5,053 nucleotides of DNA, from IMG/VR virus record IMGVR_UViG_2671181111_000008. One strand, given 5' to 3'. Each line of letters opens with the position of its first letter. The stretch's first letter is position 1. Positions 62 to 4,978 of this stretch are shown here, piece by piece. This DNA comes from a virus (Duplodnaviria; Heunggongvirae; Uroviricota; Caudoviricetes). The translations under genes were made by a program, and so were the position numbers. The notes under the pieces were generated by a model that was given only the letters and a program-made list of their open reading frames with translations, had not been told where the DNA came from and made no database searches.

Positions 62-82
62 TTACCGTAATGATGGCGACAT
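62..82 (-). pseudogene. Probable remnant of an SAR-endolysin (R21-like) start: ATG overlapping the holin stop, then MSPSLR and TAA
   Basis: Minus strand reads GAA-TAA-TG: ATG at 82..80 overlaps the S stop (84..82) in a TAATG arrangement, as in lambdoid S-R junctions. It translates M-S-P-S-L-R and then stops at TAA (64..62). From memory, phage 21 endolysin begins MPPSLRK. Downstream sequence does not continue an endolysin-like frame. Confidence 0.35.
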
Positions 83-297
83 TATTCACCTCTCGCAGCC
101 TTACGCTTGTCTTCTCTGATTTTGAAGTACAGATTTGTCAGATAAGTCAGGAAGCCCAGAACCAGACTCCCCAGTACACCAATCGCAGCCCACTGTGACG
201 GACTGACCTGATCAAGCCACTGTAAAAACCAGTAGCCAGCACTGCCTGCGGAGGTGCCGTAGGCAATGCCCGTTGAAATTTTGTCCATGGATTTCAT
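82..297 (-). CDS. S: Class II holin / pinholin, S21-like (71 aa)
   Basis: 71-codon ORF with ATG at 297..295 and GGAGG Shine-Dalgarno (309..305) 7 nt upstream. N-terminus MKSMDK gives the Met1/Met4 dual-start motif. Two hydrophobic segments and a charged C-tail ([13 protein letters not shown]). The sequence matches my recollection of the phage 21 pinholin. Position downstream of Q and tRNAs fits a lambdoid late operon. Confidence 0.85.
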
Positions 298-404
298 AGC
301 CTCACCTCCGCAAATAACGGATGGCGTAGTTTTACACTGAGAAATGAAAGGGATTTGAAAAGAAAAAACCGCAAAAGCGGGCGAAACGATATATACAGTA
401 AGGA

Positions 405-589: not shown

Positions 590-656
<67 letters not shown>

Positions 657-664
<8 letters not shown>

Positions 665-795
665 NNNNNNNNNNNNNNNNNNNNNNNNNNNNNNNNNNNN
701 NNNNNNNNNNNNNNNNNNNNNNNNNNNNNNNNNNNNNNNNNNNNNNNNNNNNNNNNNNNNNNNNNNNNNNNNNNNNNNNNNNNNNNNNNNNNNNN
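657..795. other. 139-nt run of N (assembly gap or masked sequence)
   Basis: Read directly. It removes the 5' end of the tRNA at 590-664 and about 130 nt of what is otherwise tRNA-cluster spacer. Confidence 1.
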
Positions 796-817
796 ACCTA
801 CTGAGCCAAGTCGGCAC

Positions 818-894
818 TGGACCGCCACCGGGGACTCGAACCTCGCACACTCAACTTAAAGGGTTGACGCTCTTTCCTGATGAGCTAGTGGCGG
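818..894 (-). tRNA. tRNA-like gene with atypical anticodon loop CCUUUAA (C33; anticodon positions read UUU); isotype uncertain
   Basis: Reverse complement folds as a cloverleaf: perfect 7-bp acceptor stem (CCGCCAC/GTGGCGG, C1-G72), D-stem GCTC/GAGC with 9-nt loop containing GG, anticodon stem TCAAC/GTTGA, 5-nt variable loop, T-arm CGAGG-TTCGAGT-CCCCG with one A-C mismatch, discriminator U, encoded CCA at 820..818. Position 33 is C rather than the near-universal U. Confidence 0.6.
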
Positions 895-895
895 T

Positions 896-971
896 TGGTG
901 GCCCTTGCTGGATTTGAACCAGCGACCTGGCGATTATGAGTCGCTCGCTCTCACCACTGAGCTAAAGGGCC
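896..971 (-). tRNA. ileZ: tRNA with CAU anticodon, tRNA-Ile2 (lysidine-type, ileZ-like) rather than tRNA-Met
   Basis: 76-nt cloverleaf: acceptor GGCCCTT/AAGGGCC, D-arm GCTC-AGTGGTGA-GAGC, anticodon loop CUCAUAA (U33, anticodon CAU), T-arm GCTGG-TTCAAAT-CCAGC, discriminator A, encoded CCA. It closely resembles my recollection of E. coli tRNA-Ile2 (ileX), and lambdoid Q-to-S regions typically carry ileZ. Confidence 0.8.
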
Positions 972-980
972 GAGCGCAGG

Positions 981-1009
981 ATAATAACGTTACGAAATCA
1001 ATGTTGCAA
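981..1009 (-). promoter_or_regulatory. Candidate sigma70 promoter for the tRNA cluster (TTGCAA -17- TATTAT)
   Basis: On the minus strand, -35 TTGCAA (1009..1004), 17-nt spacer, -10 TATTAT (986..981), then a GC-rich discriminator cctgcgctc before the tRNA 5' end at 971. The predicted start lies only about 4-6 nt upstream of the mature tRNA. Confidence 0.4.
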
Positions 1010-1069: not shown

Positions 1070-1100
1070 GTGGCACAAAAAACCCGCTTGTGGGCGGGTT
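1070..1100 (-). terminator. Rho-independent terminator (candidate tR-prime), bidirectional in appearance
   Basis: Stem aacccgc (1081-1087) / gcgggtt (1094-1100) with 6-nt loop. On the minus strand it is followed by UUUUUUGUG; on the plus strand by ttgtttgctttt. It lies 70-100 nt downstream of the Q-like stop. Confidence 0.6.
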
Positions 1101-1152
1101 TTGTTTGCTTTTGCCATCACGTACAAAATCGGCAAAATATCAGATTTGCATG

Positions 1153-1181
1153 AATATATGCCTTTCAATCTACTTTTGCAA
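1153..1181 (-). promoter_or_regulatory. Candidate late promoter (pR-prime-like), TTGCAA -17- TATATT, overlapping the Q-like stop codon
   Basis: On the minus strand, -35 TTGCAA (1181..1176), 17-nt spacer containing the TAG stop (1172..1170), -10 TATATT (1158..1153). The predicted start near 1146 would give a short transcript ending at the terminator at 1070-1100, the geometry expected of a Q-modified late promoter. Confidence 0.45.
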
Positions 1182-1880
1182 CACTTTGCTTTGAAAATGC
1201 CGTCTTTTTTTTGAACGTGTTCTCATTACAAACAATAAAGCCTCACTATCCAGTCGGTGAAAAATGTGTTTCATTACAACCCAGTGACCAGTAAATGTTT
1301 TGGACCAGTTTTTGGTTGTTACTCCCGCCAGTAATGCCAGCTCCTGATATTCATAACCTTCCCCACCAACCTGGTATTCATAACCTTCCCCACCAAAAAG
1401 TTCTGCTTTTACTGCCTGCGCCGCCAGCCAGATTAATTTTTTCAGGCGTTCCTGCGTTTTCCCTGCAATTTTTCTGGTACCGGATTGAGCATTAAATTCA
1501 TTCCACGCCCACTGTGTTATCGCGATCTGATATTCCCAACAAATACTCCCGCTGTAACACCACAACAACCAGGCTTTATGATGTTCTTCAAGAGACAGAA
1601 CAGCCCGCCGCCACGATGATGTCGAAAACTCAACCGGACTGACCAGAGGAATTGACGTCCCCTTCGCCAGCGATTGCTTTCCCGGGATTGGTGGATTATC
1701 CCGCGTTATCATTTTTCCAGTCACTTCATCGCGGTACCGGATTTTTTTACGCCTGTAACGCCCTGTATCGAACATGGCATTCTCTTGCCAGGCTTCAAGC
1801 TGACCTTTTGTTGCCCCACTCAAATCAGCGGTGGCGATAATGAGCTGCTCACGCACAAACTGTAAATACTGGTTATTCAT
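1170..1880 (-). CDS. Putative late-gene antiterminator (Q-like, about 236 aa), assigned mainly by synteny
   Basis: Long ORF immediately downstream of rusA and upstream of the candidate late promoter, terminator, tRNAs and holin, which is the canonical Q position. The ORF track starts at a GTG (1886); the ATG at 1880..1878 overlaps the rusA TGA stop as ATGA and is the more likely start. I do not recognise a specific Q-family motif, so the function is inferred. Confidence 0.55.
   Translation of the reverse strand: MNNQYLQFVREQLIIATADLSGATKGQLEAWQENAMFDTGRYRRKKIRYRDEVTGKMITRDNPPIPGKQSLAKGTSIPLVSPVEFSTSSWRRAVLSLEEHHKAWLLWCYSGSICWEYQIAITQWAWNEFNAQSGTRKIAGKTQERLKKLIWLAAQAVKAELFGGEGYEYQVGGEGYEYQELALLAGVTTKNWSKTFTGHWVVMKHIFHRLDSEALLFVMRTRSKKRRHFQSKVLQK
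1343..1396. repeat. Tandem 27-bp direct duplication (26/27 identical) inside the Q-like CDS, encoding GGEGYEYQ twice
   Basis: Copy 1 at 1343-1369 (cctgatattcataaccttccccaccaa) and copy 2 at 1370-1396 (cctggtattcataaccttccccaccaa). In frame, giving GGEGYEYQV-GGEGYEYQE in the protein. Confidence 0.9.
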
Positions 1881-2242
1881 GCGCACCCCAGTTCTGTGAT
1901 TTTTATCCCCAGCCGCCCACCAGGAACGAGCTGACCGCGCACAATATTGATTTCATCAAACTGCTCGTCGTCTATAAGTAGTCCAGCATGCGTCAGCGCA
2001 TCCAGCGGTGCCTTCAGGATATTGTCCAGGTCACGACGGCGCTTATCCGGTGGCTCTGCAATAATCTTTATCGCCAGCCTTCCGGACAGGTTTAATTTCA
2101 GTCGCTGCTGGCGAACAATTAGCGCCACATCACGGCGATAACGCTCACCGGCTTTTGATACAAAATATGTGCTGCCACGACGTCGCCAGTAGGTGTTCAC
2201 CGTTGGCGGGTAAGGCAAAACAAATTCTATGCGTTCGGTCAT
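1877..2242 (-). CDS. rusA: Crossover junction endodeoxyribonuclease RusA (Holliday junction resolvase)
   Basis: 121-aa ORF with clear similarity to my recollection of E. coli RusA: PDKRRRDLDN (vs RusA PDRRRRDLDN), LIDDEQ acidic pair, C-terminal GGRLGIKITELG (vs GGRLELTITEMG). ATG at 2242..2240 directly follows the upstream TAA (TAAATG). Confidence 0.9.
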   Translation of the reverse strand: MTERIEFVLPYPPTVNTYWRRRGSTYFVSKAGERYRRDVALIVRQQRLKLNLSGRLAIKIIAEPPDKRRRDLDNILKAPLDALTHAGLLIDDEQFDEINIVRGQLVPGGRLGIKITELGCA

Positions 2243-3301
2243 TTATGCTTTCCACTTCAGAACACCCGAATTTCTCGCGTGCATTAAAAAACGAATCAGC
2301 AACAACAACTGACTACCGTGTTTTTCTTCAAAATCTTTTACCCCGGCGTGTAGTTCGTTATGGCATTTACGACACAGCGGAATAACAAACAAATCGTCAG
2401 CCTTTGTTCCCATCCCTCCCAGTCCATGACCAATGATGTGGTGCGGATCATCTGCCTGATTGCCACACGTCATGCATTTCTGCGTTTTTACCCAGCGCGT
2501 GTATACAGGCATCTCTTCCCGTTGTGGTTTCTGGCGCTGGAGATACTGAGCCGGAGATTCCGGATCAACGGCAATGCTGACCACCGTCTCTTCCTGTGGT
2601 GGATTCTGTTGCTGGTGGGCGTGAGGCAGCGGCGCAAGATTTTTTGTGCGCTGCTTCAGTATGCTGGTGGAGGTCTGCTCTCCCGGCACGATGTCGCTTT
2701 CACGGTACATTGAGCGGATTTTTTCCGCACGCAACCCCAGCGAACGACGTAATACCGCTTCCGGTAGCGCGTCCGCCACCTGATTGCGGACCGCCCACCA
2801 GGATAATTCAGCCAGAGATAATTCACGCTCCTGCGTACCGCTTATTGCGTGACCGATGACGTCAATCATCCATGCTGACAGGTTTTGATGAGCAAGTTGC
2901 TCGAGTGATTCGGATGTCTGGTCACGCAACTGGTTGTCGCAGTGCCAGCACAACACCATTGCGCCGGTACCATAACGGTGAATGACGGTTTCGCTGTGAT
3001 GATAATCGCCGTGTGGCCACTGGCAGGATTTCATATGGCGCAACAGCCAGTCAGACAATGCGCCAGCACCACCAGCAGCACGAATCACCCGTGCGTTACT
3101 GAAAAACGGCAGCAATGTTTTGTCTTCCACCAGCGGCTGGCGAACGGCAGGAACGACCCCGGACGGCAGATTACGCATGCTTTTCGGTTCCGGCTCCACC
3201 AGTACCCGGGTATTGTGGAATACCGGCATGGATTCACGGCCTGGCTTAAGGACCACCAGCCCGAGTTCCGGAACCAGAACAGGTCGAAGTAATACCCGCA
3301 C
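2243..3301 (-). CDS. Prophage nin-region protein, DUF968/YdfU-like with a C-terminal NinG/YbcO-like Cys-His module; probable GTG start
   Basis: 352-codon ORF. C-terminal segment CMTCGNQADDPHHIIGHGLGGMGTKADDLFVIPLCRKCHNELH has the CxxC...H...CxxCH pattern I recall from lambda NinG (Rap) and DLP12 YbcO. Size and position resemble Qin-prophage ydfU. Start is GTG at 3301..3299 with GGAGG (3310..3306) 4 nt upstream; the in-window ATG at 3303 is in another frame. Confidence 0.7.
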   Translation of the reverse strand: MRVLLRPVLVPELGLVVLKPGRESMPVFHNTRVLVEPEPKSMRNLPSGVVPAVRQPLVEDKTLLPFFSNARVIRAAGGAGALSDWLLRHMKSCQWPHGDYHHSETVIHRYGTGAMVLCWHCDNQLRDQTSESLEQLAHQNLSAWMIDVIGHAISGTQERELSLAELSWWAVRNQVADALPEAVLRRSLGLRAEKIRSMYRESDIVPGEQTSTSILKQRTKNLAPLPHAHQQQNPPQEETVVSIAVDPESPAQYLQRQKPQREEMPVYTRWVKTQKCMTCGNQADDPHHIIGHGLGGMGTKADDLFVIPLCRKCHNELHAGVKDFEEKHGSQLLLLIRFLMHARNSGVLKWKA

Positions 3302-3302
3302 A

Positions 3303-3581
3303 TTACCTCCAGATCCGTTGCTGGAATGTGCAGGACGGACGCGGTGGCCGTTCGGAATAAGGGAGCCTGACGAAGATTATCCAGTGACGATAATCGAGAC
3401 TGAGGGCTTTCTTAATCTCGTATCCGTGTCTGCGGTAGCGCTGAATCAGCCATTCAGCCTGTTCTTCGGTGCAGGGGTCGTGCTGATACCAGTCAGATTT
3501 GAATGCATGAGAACGCCGCCCGTGCCTGCTGGCAGGGGCGGCAGAGTTATCCGAATTGTAAAATTTGGTATCGTGCGCCAT
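3303..3581 (-). CDS. Hypothetical prophage protein (92 aa); the ORF-track 135-aa version is over-extended
   Basis: The track ORF starts at a GTG (3710) upstream of, and spanning, the hok terminator (3653-3680), so its first 43 codons are likely untranslated. The first ATG after the terminator is at 3581..3579. The stop TAA (3305..3303) sits 1 nt before the downstream GTG. No recognisable motif; the SD is weak. Confidence 0.45.
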   Translation of the reverse strand: MAHDTKFYNSDNSAAPASRHGRRSHAFKSDWYQHDPCTEEQAEWLIQRYRRHGYEIKKALSLDYRHWIIFVRLPYSERPPRPSCTFQQRIWR

Positions 3582-3652
3582 CTGTTTTCTCTGCTGGCGC
3601 AGCAGGTGCCAGTTGTTCAGGCTGACGGATGGATTGTAAACCAGAACGACCA

Positions 3653-3680
3653 GAAAAAACAAAACCCGCCGAAGCGGGTT
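3653..3680 (-). terminator. Rho-independent terminator of the hok transcript (UUCG tetraloop hairpin plus U-tract)
   Basis: Minus-strand RNA: stem aacccgc / gcgggtt (3680..3674 and 3669..3663) closed by a UUCG loop, followed by UUUUGUUUUUUC (3662..3651). Confidence 0.7.
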
Positions 3681-3748
3681 AAGTGCGGGTGCGTTGAGGA
3701 TGCCTGACACATCAGCGGTGGCGAGGGATTTCTCCCCCGCCGGGTCTC

Positions 3749-3904
3749 TTACTCCTCAGGTTCGTAAGCTGTGAAGACAGCGACCTCCGTCTGGCCGGTT
3801 CGGATTCGTACCTCGCAGAGGTCTTTCCTCGTTACCAGTGCCGTCACTATGACGGTTAAACAGATGACGATCAGGGCGATTAACATCGCCTTTTGCTGCT
3901 TCAT
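3749..3904 (-). CDS. hok: Hok/Gef-family type I toxin (51 aa), HokD/RelF-like
   Basis: Translation MKQQKAMLIALIVICLTVIVTALVTRKDLCEVRIRTGQTEVAVFTAYEPEE matches my recollection of E. coli HokD/RelF. Single N-terminal TM segment and conserved Cys. ATG at 3904..3902 preceded by AAGGAG about 9 nt upstream. The 70-aa track ORF is an in-frame upstream extension. Confidence 0.9.
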   Translation of the reverse strand: MKQQKAMLIALIVICLTVIVTALVTRKDLCEVRIRTGQTEVAVFTAYEPEE

Positions 3905-4078
3905 AGCCTGCTTCTCCTTGCCTTTCGGCACGTAAGAGGCTAACCTACATGTGTTCAGCATGGATTGAGCCTCAGATTAATGTTAAGCGTCTTGCAGGAC
4001 GCGTAATGTTAACTGGGGCTTTTCTCTATCTGCCTTTTGGTGTTCATGCCTGAGACAGATAGCCTCAAGCACCCGCAG
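3905..4078 (-). promoter_or_regulatory. hok mRNA 5' leader (tac-like 5' end, 5' stem-loop, upstream translation-initiation region)
   Basis: Minus-strand sequence gcttgaggctatctg...cagatag...agcctcttac...gcaaggagaag...ATG parallels the plasmid R1 hok leader as I recall it. The 5' segment (about 4078..4063) is complementary, with one bulge, to the 3' UTR segment (about 3700..3685), the fold-back arrangement characteristic of hok mRNAs. Confidence 0.5.
3975..4075 (+). ncRNA. Candidate Sok-like antisense RNA region (ends not determined)
   Basis: By analogy with hok/sok, the antitoxin RNA is transcribed antisense to the hok leader, starting near the upstream initiation region and running toward the hok mRNA 5' end. 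The plus strand here carries weak -10 candidates (TAATGT at 3978-3983 and 4004-4009) and the complement of the hok 5' stem-loop. I could not fix a clean promoter or terminator. Confidence 0.3.
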
Positions 4079-4555: not shown

Positions 4556-4978
4556 TCAGTTGGCTGGTCGTTTAACCGACATAGTTAACCCATTAATCTG
4601 GTTGCCGGATGCTGGTGGATTTTCGCGTTTTAGTTGTTCATAAAAGTGCACAGCTTTAACCAGTTCTTCTGATGTAACCGGGACTGGTGGGGCAGTGAAT
4701 AAGGCCTGAATTTCATAGTTCGGCCTGTCGTTACAATCCTCTTTTTTCGGTACATATTTCCAGTCACCAACCCACAACTCCCCCTGAGAGTCCATAACAC
4801 CTTTTTTCACGTAGCGATATCGCCACGCTATCGGCTCTGCTTCCAGCGATGCCCGTGCAATTTTGAATAACTCGCCCTCTACTCGCGCCATCCCTGAATT
4901 GGGGTGGCATTTCGTAATCGCTATTTTTAATTTGGCTTCTTCGATTAATTGTTCTTTTGTTAATTCAGTCATTTTCAT
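4556..4978 (-). CDS. Hypothetical protein (140 aa), unknown function
   Basis: ATG-initiated ORF (4978..4976) of normal GC content and non-repetitive composition, same orientation as the rest of the prophage genes. I recognise no motifs. The IS1 end lies 9 bp upstream of its start codon. Confidence 0.6.
   Translation of the reverse strand: MKMTELTKEQLIEEAKLKIAITKCHPNSGMARVEGELFKIARASLEAEPIAWRYRYVKKGVMDSQGELWVGDWKYVPKKEDCNDRPNYEIQALFTAPPVPVTSEELVKAVHFYEQLKRENPPASGNQINGLTMSVKRPAN

Follow-up and report, generated by a model that had tools for sequence, protein, structure and literature searches.

The stretch of viral DNA analysed here, the window, is 5053 nucleotides long (IMG/VR record IMGVR_UViG_2671181111_000008, Caudoviricetes), and all of its genes lie on the minus strand. 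The locus of interest begins at the 3' end of a gene for a Q-type antiterminator and extends through a promoter, a pause element and a terminator into a late region of tRNA and lysis genes. Its features, in the approximate direction of transcription, are as follows.

1170..1880, minus strand: Q82-family antiterminator gene, 236 aa (ATG at 1880, stop codon TAG at 1172..1170)
1181..1176, minus strand: -35 hexamer TTGCAA, within the last codons of Q (scan)
1158..1153, minus strand: -10 hexamer TATATT, 17 bp after the -35 (scan)
1146..1149, minus strand: predicted transcription start, from 82 pR' numbering and IsrJ coordinates
1142..1131, minus strand: sigma70-dependent pause element TG-a-TATTTT-GCC, assigned from the positions published for 82 pR' and from conservation
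1122..1123, minus strand: predicted promoter-proximal pause at +25/+26 (U1123, A1122), by analogy to 82 pR'
1076..1147, minus strand: predicted short terminated transcript of ~72 nt, corresponding to lambda 6S RNA, StxS and IsrJ
1109..1137, minus strand: hairpin 1 of the nascent RNA in the minimum free energy structure, UUUUGCC (1137..1131) pairing with GGCAAAA (1115..1109)
1075..1102, minus strand: intrinsic terminator tR' with stem AAAACCCGC/GCGGGUUUU and loop CCACAA; its U tract runs to 1077 and is followed by G and U
1009..981, minus strand: second promoter-like site, TTGCAA-17-TATTAT, downstream in the read-through unit (scan)
971..896, minus strand: tRNA(CAT), read-through unit
894..818, minus strand: tRNA-Lys, read-through unit
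657-795: masked Ns
655..601, minus strand: partial tRNA, read-through unit
82..297, minus strand: gene for a P21-type holin S, first of the late (lysis) genes (PF04971, E=1.4e-35)

The start codon of the upstream gene overlaps the stop codon of rusA as ATGA. Its product matches Pfam PF06323 (E=4e-88) and phrog_304, 'anti-termination protein Q-like' (E=4e-106), has the RefSeq name 'bacteriophage antitermination protein Q' and is 70.8% identical to the experimentally characterised Q protein of phage 82 (X92588), whose record closes with the Q stop codon. PF06323 is the Q82 family, to which the families of Q-lambda (PF03589) and Q21 (PF06530) are unrelated, and whether Q82 acts by a closed nozzle is still open (PMC9388147). 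An earlier note, made from the DNA letters and a list of open reading frames, called the 236-aa protein an antiterminator and took the geometry of the adjacent promoter and terminator as the main support for that call. The call holds, since the protein belongs by homology to the Q82 family and not to an unrelated one, but its main support is this direct homology and not the geometry. A search of solved structures by sequence with the Q protein gave no match.

The window's allele of Q has two peculiarities. An in-frame 27-bp tandem duplication at 1343-1396 adds nine residues (GGEGYEYQV) to a conserved region; among the viral loci that were fetched it is found only in the window's own contig (L015/L095), and none of the E. 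coli genome matches listed carries it, each being 24-27 nt shorter and split in two pieces. The last 14 residues of the protein are read in another frame than in other family members. This frameshifted tail is common to the E. coli lineage and occurs in hundreds of E. coli prophages, including records of inducible phages such as vB_EcoS-689R5, and so it is probably tolerated.

The near-consensus promoter that the earlier note placed over the Q stop codon is present on the minus strand, with the TAG inside its 17-bp spacer. In the promoter scan, TTGCAA-17-TATATT matches the consensus at 9 of 12 positions, which by itself is not significant: the window contains 10 such matches, with 5.9 +/- 2.7 expected. 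The ordered combination of a promoter, the pattern TGnTAnnnT 9-20 nt further on and, within 90 nt, a hairpin with a T tract is found at a single place in the window; it arose in 0.2% of 1000 first-order Markov simulations of the window, a figure that is rough because the composite pattern was set after the data had been seen. Conservation of the spacer does not define an element bound by Q, because the spacer also encodes the C-terminus and stop codon of the Q protein.

By analogy with phage 82, our preferred start site (+1) is A1147, the first A of a conserved AAAUC. The canonical spacing of 7 nt puts the start at A1146, and the equivalent of the 5' end of IsrJ by primer extension, located from the IsrJ coordinates (PMC2330248) and the Gifsy-1 sequence, is about G1149, 2-3 nt upstream of the preferred start. 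Compared with most relatives, the window lacks one base between the -10 hexamer and the AAAT start, and a 1-nt shift of the start and of the pause register is possible. The reference list of PMC5001585 cites transcript slippage at the 82 late promoter, with which the AAA start of the window agrees.

A search for a pause-inducing -10-like element just downstream of the start, which the earlier note had suggested as a check, found one at the position known for 82 pR', and it is conserved. It consists of an extended TG (1142..1141), a -10-like hexamer TATTTT (1139..1134) and a G/C-rich GCC (1133..1131). The earlier note had overlooked it. Counted from A1147, TG is at +6/+7, TATTTT at +9..+14 and GCC at +15..+17, and there is a U at +25. 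In the published description of 82 pR' (PMC5001585), pausing occurs at +25/26, with a U at +25, and the sequence features listed are an AT-rich stretch, GCC at +15-17 and an extended -10-like element. When these positional descriptions are compared with the window, the features appear to agree position for position, provided that A1147 is +1. According to Bird et al., the pause element of phage 82 is nearer to TATAAT than that of lambda.

The terminator is also where the earlier note had put it, about 50-75 nt after the promoter, as a minus-strand hairpin at 1102..1079 followed by a U tract. Its arms are AAAACCCGC (1102..1094) and GCGGGTTTT (1087..1079) around the loop CCACAA, and the Us run to 1077 before G1076 and T1075. 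The hairpin occupies +46..+69, and the terminator ends ~70 nt past the predicted start. On folding, the terminator stem alone has a free energy of -12.4 kcal/mol, and an 80-nt transcript gives -24.7 kcal/mol (z = -3.2 against shuffled sequences). The terminator scan called this hairpin on the plus strand only, because the scan absorbs the Ts into the stem; both sides of the symmetric hairpin are rich in T.

The earlier note remarked further that the stem is identical to that of the hok terminator and that this might be coincidence or a shared sequence family. The identity is real (7 bp, AACCCGC/GCGGGTT, at 3680..3663), but it does not reflect a shared family: flanks and loops are unrelated, the alignment being confined to the 7-bp stem and the T run. 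The stem pattern occurs in more than 120 viral contigs, two copies being present in several, and in one relative (L254) tR' is the exact hok-type hairpin AACCCGCTTCGGCGGGTT. An identical stem also lies downstream of ydfT, an unrelated Q gene of the Qin prophage of E. coli K-12. These comparisons mark it as a generic, widespread terminator stem. Qin itself was considered as a relative of the window and rejected, as ydfT is not homologous to the window Q gene and the pause element there is of lambda type (AACGATGGG).

The main strong evidence for the module, drawn from sequence comparison, is its conservation across relatives. Locus diversity was gathered by queries with the proteins of loci L009 and L013, and an alignment-based locus search gave the same close relatives; identity to the window was measured in 68 dereplicated divergent relatives. 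It reaches 95% in the -35 hexamer, 93% in the -10 and 91% at +1..+5. Within the pause element it is 97% for TGn, 93% for GCC and 77% for the hexamer, of which T1, A2, T3 and T6 are each conserved in 100% of the relatives. For flanking DNA the values are 18-26% (linker 0.26, downstream 0.18). The -35 nucleotides have been retained although the lineage of the window reads them in another frame than the rest of the family.

The terminator is conserved in another manner. A hairpin with a T tract is in the same place in 62 of 69 dereplicated family members, ending between +47 and +86 (median +75), and takes the form of 53 distinct sequences, as would be expected from selection on function and not on sequence. 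The module was observed at the Q stop codon in every complete locus examined. The whole of it lies immediately behind Q82-family genes in E. coli, Shigella, Citrobacter, Klebsiella, Raoultella, Buttiauxella and Salmonella as well as in many viral contigs. Of 5426 complete E. coli genomes about 949 carry it (~17%, roughly one in six), including O157 strains. In the GenBank record of phage 434, Q is annotated as 'Q82-like' and a terminator is annotated at the equivalent place.

Taken with the homology of Q to phage 82 Q and with the pause element, this conservation after Q82-family genes supports the pR'/tR' interpretation already proposed in the earlier note, and we are confident that 1181..1075 on the minus strand constitutes, in a lambdoid prophage of the phage 82 type, the module for late-gene control. 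The phage 82 late region resembles it in having a PF06323 Q protein (71% identical), a promoter at the end of Q, the same pause-region features at the published positions (including the AT-rich stretch) and an intrinsic terminator before the late genes. It differs in that the window comes from another lineage, a PPompW-type E. coli prophage, has TATTTT as its pause hexamer and starts its late operon with tRNA genes.

Promoter activity, the exact start, pausing, Q binding and read-through are proposed here on the basis of phage 82 biochemistry and the detection of IsrJ in vivo. A sigma70 promoter overlapping the end of Q, pR', would initiate at about A1147. Sigma70 would stay on the polymerase and re-bind TG-a-TATTTT at +6..+14, with GCC following at +15-17, and the complex would pause near +25. 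Without Q, the polymerase would leave the pause and stop at the terminator, releasing an RNA of ~72 nt. The Q82-family protein, once accumulated, would load onto the paused complex at its DNA binding element, and the Q-loaded polymerase would resist termination and pass tR' into the tRNA, holin/lysis and morphogenesis genes.

The short RNA predicted from this arrangement resembles an RNA already known from Salmonella. IsrJ is a 74-nt RNA with a 5' end established by primer extension and a size confirmed by northern blot (PMC2330248). In Gifsy-1 it is headed by the module TTGCAA-17-TATATT-AAATCTGATATCGTCGCC, with the same promoter as the window, and the 5' ends, of the form UG(U/C)AAAUCUGAUAU, are nearly identical, as are the first 15 nt of the window RNA and IsrJ in the Rfam alignment. 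Both RNAs consist of a 5' single strand, a hairpin, a linker and a terminator, and the lengths are 74 nt for IsrJ and about 72 nt for the window. The sequences of hairpin 1 and of the terminator differ, and in Gifsy-1 isrK-orf45-anrP (with Rfam C4 and c4-a1b1 matches) lies between antQ and isrJ, whereas the window module abuts Q.

The window matches Rfam isrJ (RF01393) over its full length at 1078-1150 with 24.5 bits, under the gathering threshold of 37; Gifsy-1 isrJ scores 100.3 bits. Among the relatives, L008 (70.5 bits), L012 (69.4) and L009 (38.3) pass, and L005 (36.6) just fails; the passing matches lie right after a Q82-family gene, in Citrobacter, Raoultella and Klebsiella loci. The promoter, the 5' end and the genomic context, an 82-type late promoter before tRNA and lysis genes, are homologous, while the window's score falls below the gathering threshold. 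We take the predicted ~72-nt RNA to be a diverged homologue of Gifsy-1 IsrJ, and IsrJ would in turn be the short RNA of a late promoter of the 82 type.

Lambda 6S RNA and StxS share the general arrangement: the late promoter is constitutive, a sigma-dependent pause lies close to it, a terminator follows at once, and the short RNA is abundant in lysogens (PMC7547250). Their Q families are unrelated to that of the window, their RNAs have no sequence similarity to the window RNA, and they are longer, the lambda RNA being 194 nt and StxS being processed to 74 nt from a precursor. IsrK, also a terminator-ended RNA of ~75 nt downstream of a Q82-like gene, was considered and rejected as an identity. 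Its family (RF01394) matches the window at 1077-1149 with 22.7 bits, against a gathering threshold of 50, a score that comes from the terminator hairpin. The promoter of IsrK is a separate one, TTGACA-17-TATATT, with no pause element, and IsrK overlaps the Rfam c4-a1b1 and C4 antisense matches. On these comparisons, the window RNA is not related to IsrK.

Several other candidates were set aside. A second isrK-like match at 3659-3740 is the 3' end of hok and is driven by its terminator, and Rfam matches to the Phe, Trp and Leu leader peptides reflect only a hairpin-plus-terminator shape. The small open reading frames over the region (53 and 34 aa on the plus strand, 56 aa on the minus strand) are not conserved, downstream identity being 0.18, and the ATG at 1117 is missing from most relatives. 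A full-text literature search for strings of the window RNA gave no match.

The evidence for hairpin 1, which comes from the alignment, is moderate. It is present only in 'long-form' family members, where 82.6% of the alignment cells are paired, against 28-55% when the partners are slid, and changes on both sides are seen at six pairs. Other relatives have alternative stems in the same place (UGUCA/UGACA, GUCG/CGAC and CUGCC/GGCGG).

It is possible, if on balance doubtful, that the ~72-nt RNA also acts in trans as an Hfq-binding small RNA, as the E. coli counterpart of IsrJ or an analogue of StxS; such a role would add to the late switch and would not exclude it. The homology to IsrJ points this way, with the nearly identical 5' 15 nt, the same context and the full-length Rfam alignment, and an isrJ mutant reportedly shows reduced invasion of host cells and slower translocation of effector proteins (PMC2330248). 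With StxS there is a precedent for pR'-tR' RNAs turning into Hfq-dependent regulators, a development that its authors propose to be common (PMC7547250). The window RNA combines a 5' hairpin that shows some covariation with an A-rich linker and a U-tailed terminator, and its module is carried by roughly one in six complete E. coli genomes; both points would suit such a role. Yet the 5' conservation is fully accounted for at the DNA level by the start site and the pause element, the remaining RNA is poorly conserved, with the linker at 0.26, short-form relatives do without hairpin 1, and the RNA scores under the Rfam threshold. That the E. coli members are constitutive, structured and trans-acting in the lysogen, within a large unrecognised family of 82-type late-promoter RNAs that includes IsrJ, we consider rather unlikely. 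Were it so, IsrJ, published as an island-encoded small RNA, would represent the leader, from pR' to tR', of the late operon of Gifsy-1, and its E. coli counterparts, in roughly one of six complete genomes, would have trans functions of their own and a conserved 5' hairpin with compensatory changes.

The remaining alternatives concern the switch itself. The Q allele of the window raises the prospect of a fossil, in which promoter and terminator work but a damaged Q has lost read-through and only the short RNA is made; the duplication in a conserved region, its restriction to this contig among the loci and listed matches described above, the out-of-frame C-terminal residues and the 1-nt deletion between the -10 and the start could all be taken as signs of decay. 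We judge this improbable, as the duplication keeps the reading frame and copies a native segment, the frameshifted tail is widespread among E. coli prophages and the cis elements are all intact. It is very improbable indeed that the hairpin merely ends the early right operon, to which Q belongs, or terminates in both directions, beside fortuitous promoter hexamers. Promoter matches of this quality are not rare in the window, and the symmetric hairpin was called on the plus strand, but conservation reaches 91-97% in the -35, the -10, the start and the pause element, as against 18-26% in the flanks, the -35 nucleotides survive a change of reading frame, and the homologous promoter is active in Salmonella. 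Moreover, there is nothing evident to terminate on the plus strand, because the genes of the window are all on the minus strand.

As a late-gene switch, the module is ordinary and well conserved, and its type is known from earlier work on phage 82. That system is a textbook model, and the locus accordingly offers the field little new mechanism. For annotation, it fixes the boundary between the early and late operons of a kind of prophage that some 17% of complete E. coli genomes contain, and marks the site that gates late-gene (lysis) expression.

The analysis also yielded a comparative picture of the 82-type late promoter, covering about 150 distinct sequences, in which the invariant promoter and pause bases can be seen, together with a downstream RNA hairpin that is kept in most, though not all, members. 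A further by-product is the recognition of Salmonella IsrJ as the probable terminated leader of an 82-type late promoter. This reframes its regulation, because the conditions of IsrJ expression, and any Q-dependent read-through, should then follow the logic of a prophage late promoter.

The feature at 1181..1070 (minus strand) is a well-conserved, ordinary late control module of the phage 82 type, a kind that is already known. The earlier note had read it as a late promoter (pR') and terminator (tR') serving a Q-like antiterminator gene, and this reading is borne out by the Q82-family gene, by a pause element in register and by conservation in relatives. Specialists might take an interest only in its link to the Salmonella small RNA IsrJ and in a conserved RNA hairpin. 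Every recognised gene is on the minus strand, and together they make up a lambdoid prophage's right arm.

Genes and elements recognised in the window
4978..4556, minus: phage protein, 140 aa, function not assigned
3961..3749, minus: hok of hok/sok (Rfam sok match, 118.9 bits)
3303-3710, minus: mechanical 135-aa open reading frame containing a small phrog_1212 protein (last 66 residues only, E=2.4e-33)
3301..2243, minus: DUF968/HNH protein
2242..1877, minus: RusA
1880..1170, minus: Q, 236-aa protein
1181..1070, minus: late control module (promoter, pause element, terminator)
1181..1176, minus: -35 hexamer TTGCAA, 17-bp spacer to the -10
1158..1153, minus: -10 hexamer TATATT (promoter with 9/12 consensus positions)
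971..601, minus: two tRNA genes, masked Ns and a partial third tRNA
297..82, minus: P21-type holin S gene

The mechanical 135-aa frame runs over the hok terminator, and the true start of the phrog_1212 gene is probably near 3503. In the tRNA cluster, 139 Ns at 657-795 mask part of the sequence, leaving the tRNA at 601-655 visible in part only; two related loci (L002 and L004) have four tRNA genes at this place. The window sits within IMG/VR contig IMGVR_UViG_2724679540_000004. Its Q-to-tRNA stretch is 98% identical to E. coli 'PPompW' prophages and some induced E. coli phages, and is matched in 1408 of 5426 complete E. coli genomes, with at least 80% covered in 949 of these.

Q proteins fall into three unrelated families, of which the Q82 family corresponds to PF06323 (PMC9388147). 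The 236-aa protein matches PF06323 (Phage_antiter_Q) over its full length (E=4e-88), PHROG 304 'anti-termination protein Q-like' (E=4e-106) and phage 82 Q (X92588; 70.8% identity, full length). It was rightly called an antiterminator in the earlier note, although the main support is not the promoter and terminator geometry cited there; the call is made because the protein is directly homologous to the biochemically characterised phage 82 Q. Q21 and Q-lambda form a closed 'nozzle' (PMC9388147); a sequence search of solved structures with the window's Q returned no match.

The promoter, TTGCAA-17-TATATT, is near consensus as described earlier, and its spacer contains the TAG (1172..1170) that ends Q. 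Promoter matches of such quality number 10 in the window against 5.9 +/- 2.7 expected, which is not significant alone. Promoter, extended -10-like element and terminator come together in this order a single time in the window and in 0.2% of 1000 simulated sequences, a value that is indicative only, as the pattern was set after seeing the data. The -35 hexamer lies in coding sequence, usually as ATT-GCA-AAA (Ile-Ala-Lys) in the family. In the window's lineage an upstream 1-nt deletion shifts this frame to GTG-TTG-CAA-AAG with the nucleotides unchanged, which points to selection on the -35 as DNA, not protein. Overlapping the palindromic TTGCAA, TTGCAACACTTTGC at 1176-1189 (plus) matches the CII-box pattern TTGC-N6-TTGC; this site is within coding sequence and partially conserved in relatives, and the GenBank record of phage 434 marks the corresponding position both as a CII site and as the -35 of the antisense promoter paQ.

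From the -10, the minus strand reads TATATT-catgc-AAATC-TG-a-TATTTT-GCC-GATTTTGTA. A pause-inducing -10-like element, which the earlier note proposed to look for, is thus present downstream of the predicted start as TG-a-TATTTT. At the phage 82 late promoter this element is near consensus with an extended -10, and is followed by a G/C-rich GCC at +15-17 and an AT-rich stretch; the paused RNA has its 3' end at U +25, with a second pause at +26 (PMC5001585, Bird et al.). If transcription starts at A1147, all these features are in register, with TG at +6/+7, TATTTT at +9..+14, GCC at +15..+17, GAUUUUG at +18..+24 and U at +25. Counting by the canonical 7-nt rule would place the start at A1146, as in the earlier guess, since the window lacks one T that most relatives have after the -10. 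By these arguments we predict the start at 1147 +/- 1. Among the references of PMC5001585 is work on transcript slippage at the late promoter of phage 82; slippage there would fit a start on a run of A.

We collected 316 loci with Q relatives from GTDB genomes (E. coli, Shigella, Citrobacter, Klebsiella, Raoultella and Buttiauxella) and IMG/VR. To these we added phage 434, in whose record Q is described as 'Q82-like' and a terminator is marked at the corresponding position. The module is present at the Q stop in every fetched locus that reaches beyond this stop, including some in which the stop is shifted into the -35 hexamer. Its cis elements keep their order and are conserved, while the linker and the DNA past the terminator have diverged.

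Identity to the window in the dereplicated set (n=68; <75% identity to the window over the region, <90% pairwise)
-35 hexamer: 0.95
-10 hexamer: 0.93
+1..+5: 0.91
TGn: 0.97
Pause hexamer: 0.77 overall; 1.0 at T1, A2, T3 and T6
GCC: 0.93
Linker: 0.26
DNA past the terminator: 0.18

A hairpin with a T tract follows in 62/69 sequences, ending at +47 to +86 (median +75). The 62 sequences bearing tR' have 53 distinct hairpin sequences, and such diversity at a kept position is the pattern expected of a terminator retained for function.

In the window, the hairpin and U tract reported earlier are AAAACCCGC-CCACAA-GCGGGUUUU at 1102..1079 (minus) and six consecutive Us (1082..1077), then G and U. Folding energies are -12.4 kcal/mol for the stem alone and -24.7 kcal/mol for the 80-nt transcript (z = -3.2). 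The hairpin is symmetric, and our scan tool listed it on the plus strand only because it absorbs Ts into the stem. The 7-bp stem is indeed identical to that of the hok terminator (3680..3663), but the shared sequence family that had been suggested for the two falls away, with no alignment between these regions outside the stem and T run. AACCCGC-N3-8-GCGGGTT occurs in at least 120 viral contigs, several with two copies within a few kb; tR' in one relative (L254) is the exact hok-type hairpin, loop included; and in K-12 Qin the stem recurs in the terminator that follows ydfT. With unalignable flanks and this wide occurrence, we take AACCCGC/GCGGGTT to be a common stable terminator stem whose presence in both terminators does not indicate common descent. 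The Qin locus (L438; NC_000913.3 1642300-1642540, minus) has, downstream of ydfT (QuuQ), whose Q protein is unrelated to the window's, a promoter-like TTGCAT-17-TAAAAT, then AACGATGGG (lambda-type pause element), then a terminator with this stem. A sub-threshold Rfam isrK match at 3659-3740 (minus; 27.2 bits, threshold 50) covers the hok mRNA 3' UTR and terminator, and is probably a coincidence of shape and terminator.

Between the pause element and tR', UUUUGCC (1137..1131) pairs with GGCAAAA (1115..1109) as hairpin 1. Most relatives have a hairpin at this position (long form), some with alternative stems (UGUCA/UGACA, GUCG/CGAC, CUGCC/GGCGG), whereas six members, including 434, pass directly from the pause region to the terminator (short form). 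When 60 long-form sequences are aligned without gaps, 82.6% of cells pair, against 28-55% with slid partners, and six pairs have changes on both sides. This is moderate evidence that hairpin 1 is a selected RNA structure. Hairpin 1 is unable to form before polymerase is well beyond the +25 pause, and this, with its absence from short-form members, makes a role in the released RNA or in post-pause elongation more likely than one in Q loading.

The Rfam models isrJ and isrK both match window 1078-1150 over their full length, below threshold (24.5 bits against 37, and 22.7 against 50). The isrJ consensus 5' start, uguAaauCUGAUAuC, is the conserved start and pause-element sequence, and isrJ scores above threshold directly after a Q82-family gene in three relatives (L008, 70.5; L012, 69.4; L009, 38.3 bits) and slightly below it in a fourth (L005, 36.6 bits). 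In Salmonella Gifsy-1 (L317; NC_010392.1, reverse complement of 31226-35713; stretch 1360-2310), the order is antQ, whose annotation notes a similarity to phage 82 Q; a TTGACA-17-TATATT promoter with isrK, overlapping matches to Rfam C4 antisense RNA and a1b1 targets; orf45 and anrP; immediately past the stop of anrP, isrJ with its promoter, TTGCAA-17-TATATT-ttatgt-AAATCTGATATCGTCGCC (isrJ at 2234-2308 in L317, 100.3 bits); and tRNA-Arg, isrI, gogA and a holin gene. Judged by sequence, IsrJ is the terminated leader of the 82-type Gifsy-1 late promoter, since this promoter precedes it and it starts with an 82-type pause element (AAATCTGATATCGTCGCC). Because of the C4 and a1b1 matches, the isrK-orf45-anrP block between antQ and the isrJ promoter resembles an inserted P1-type c4/antirepressor module.

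In vivo, IsrJ was observed as an RNA of 74 nt; primer extension located its 5' end, and the 3' end was assigned to the terminator's last U (PMC2330248). This lends experimental support to activity of the homologous promoter and terminator, although the mapped 5' end is 2-3 nt upstream of the equivalent of A1147. Our literature search for IsrJ linked to a late promoter found no such paper; Sy et al. link IsrK, not IsrJ, to a late promoter, and count the 6S RNA of lambda, along with short RNAs from phages 21, phi80, 82 and P22, in the same class (PMC7547250).

We infer the activities of the module from phage 82 biochemistry and IsrJ. Sigma70 holoenzyme would initiate at about A1147; retained sigma70 would re-bind TG-a-TATTTT, and the complex would scrunch and pause near +25. 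Without Q, polymerase would escape, transcribe hairpin 1 and terminate at 1077-1075, giving an RNA of about 72 nt. With Q and NusA, which is reported with Q82 action (PMC9388147), the paused complex would be modified and read through tR' into the tRNAs, holin gene and rest of the late operon.

It is possible, though we consider it unlikely, that the module is intact while the window's own Q is impaired, because Q carries a duplication and a frameshifted tail and the -10-to-start distance is one base shorter than in most relatives. The duplication, an in-frame 27-bp tandem repeat at 1343-1396 (minus; 2.0 copies, 96% match), inserts nine residues, GGEGYEYQV, into a conserved segment. Of the viral loci fetched, only the contig that holds the window has it, and it is absent from all E. 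coli genome matches listed. The C-terminal ~14 residues (1170-1215, minus) are KKRRHFQSKVLQK, frameshifted relative to the family tail EQKAAFSKQSIAKVD because the two differ by 1 nt at an A8 run, and the family stop is at 1167..1165. This frameshifted tail is common to a whole widespread E. coli lineage, and slippage on the A run could in principle switch between the two tails.

A second promoter-like site, TTGCAA-17-TATTAT at 981-1009 (minus), lies downstream of tR', with the first tRNA gene 9 nt further on. The tRNAs may be transcribed independently of Q, since L004 retains the hexamers and spacing (TTGCAG-17-TATTAT) amid diverged intergenic DNA. Given 92% identity between the 981-1009 region and the sequence preceding ileZ in Stx2 phages, the 'tRNA-Met (CAT)' gene probably encodes a tRNA of the ileZ type. 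Past the tRNAs and ahead of the holin gene, a weak hairpin, CCGC-TTTT-GCGG, with six Ts at 361-383 (minus), may be a second weak terminator, one that would be passed solely by Q-modified polymerase.
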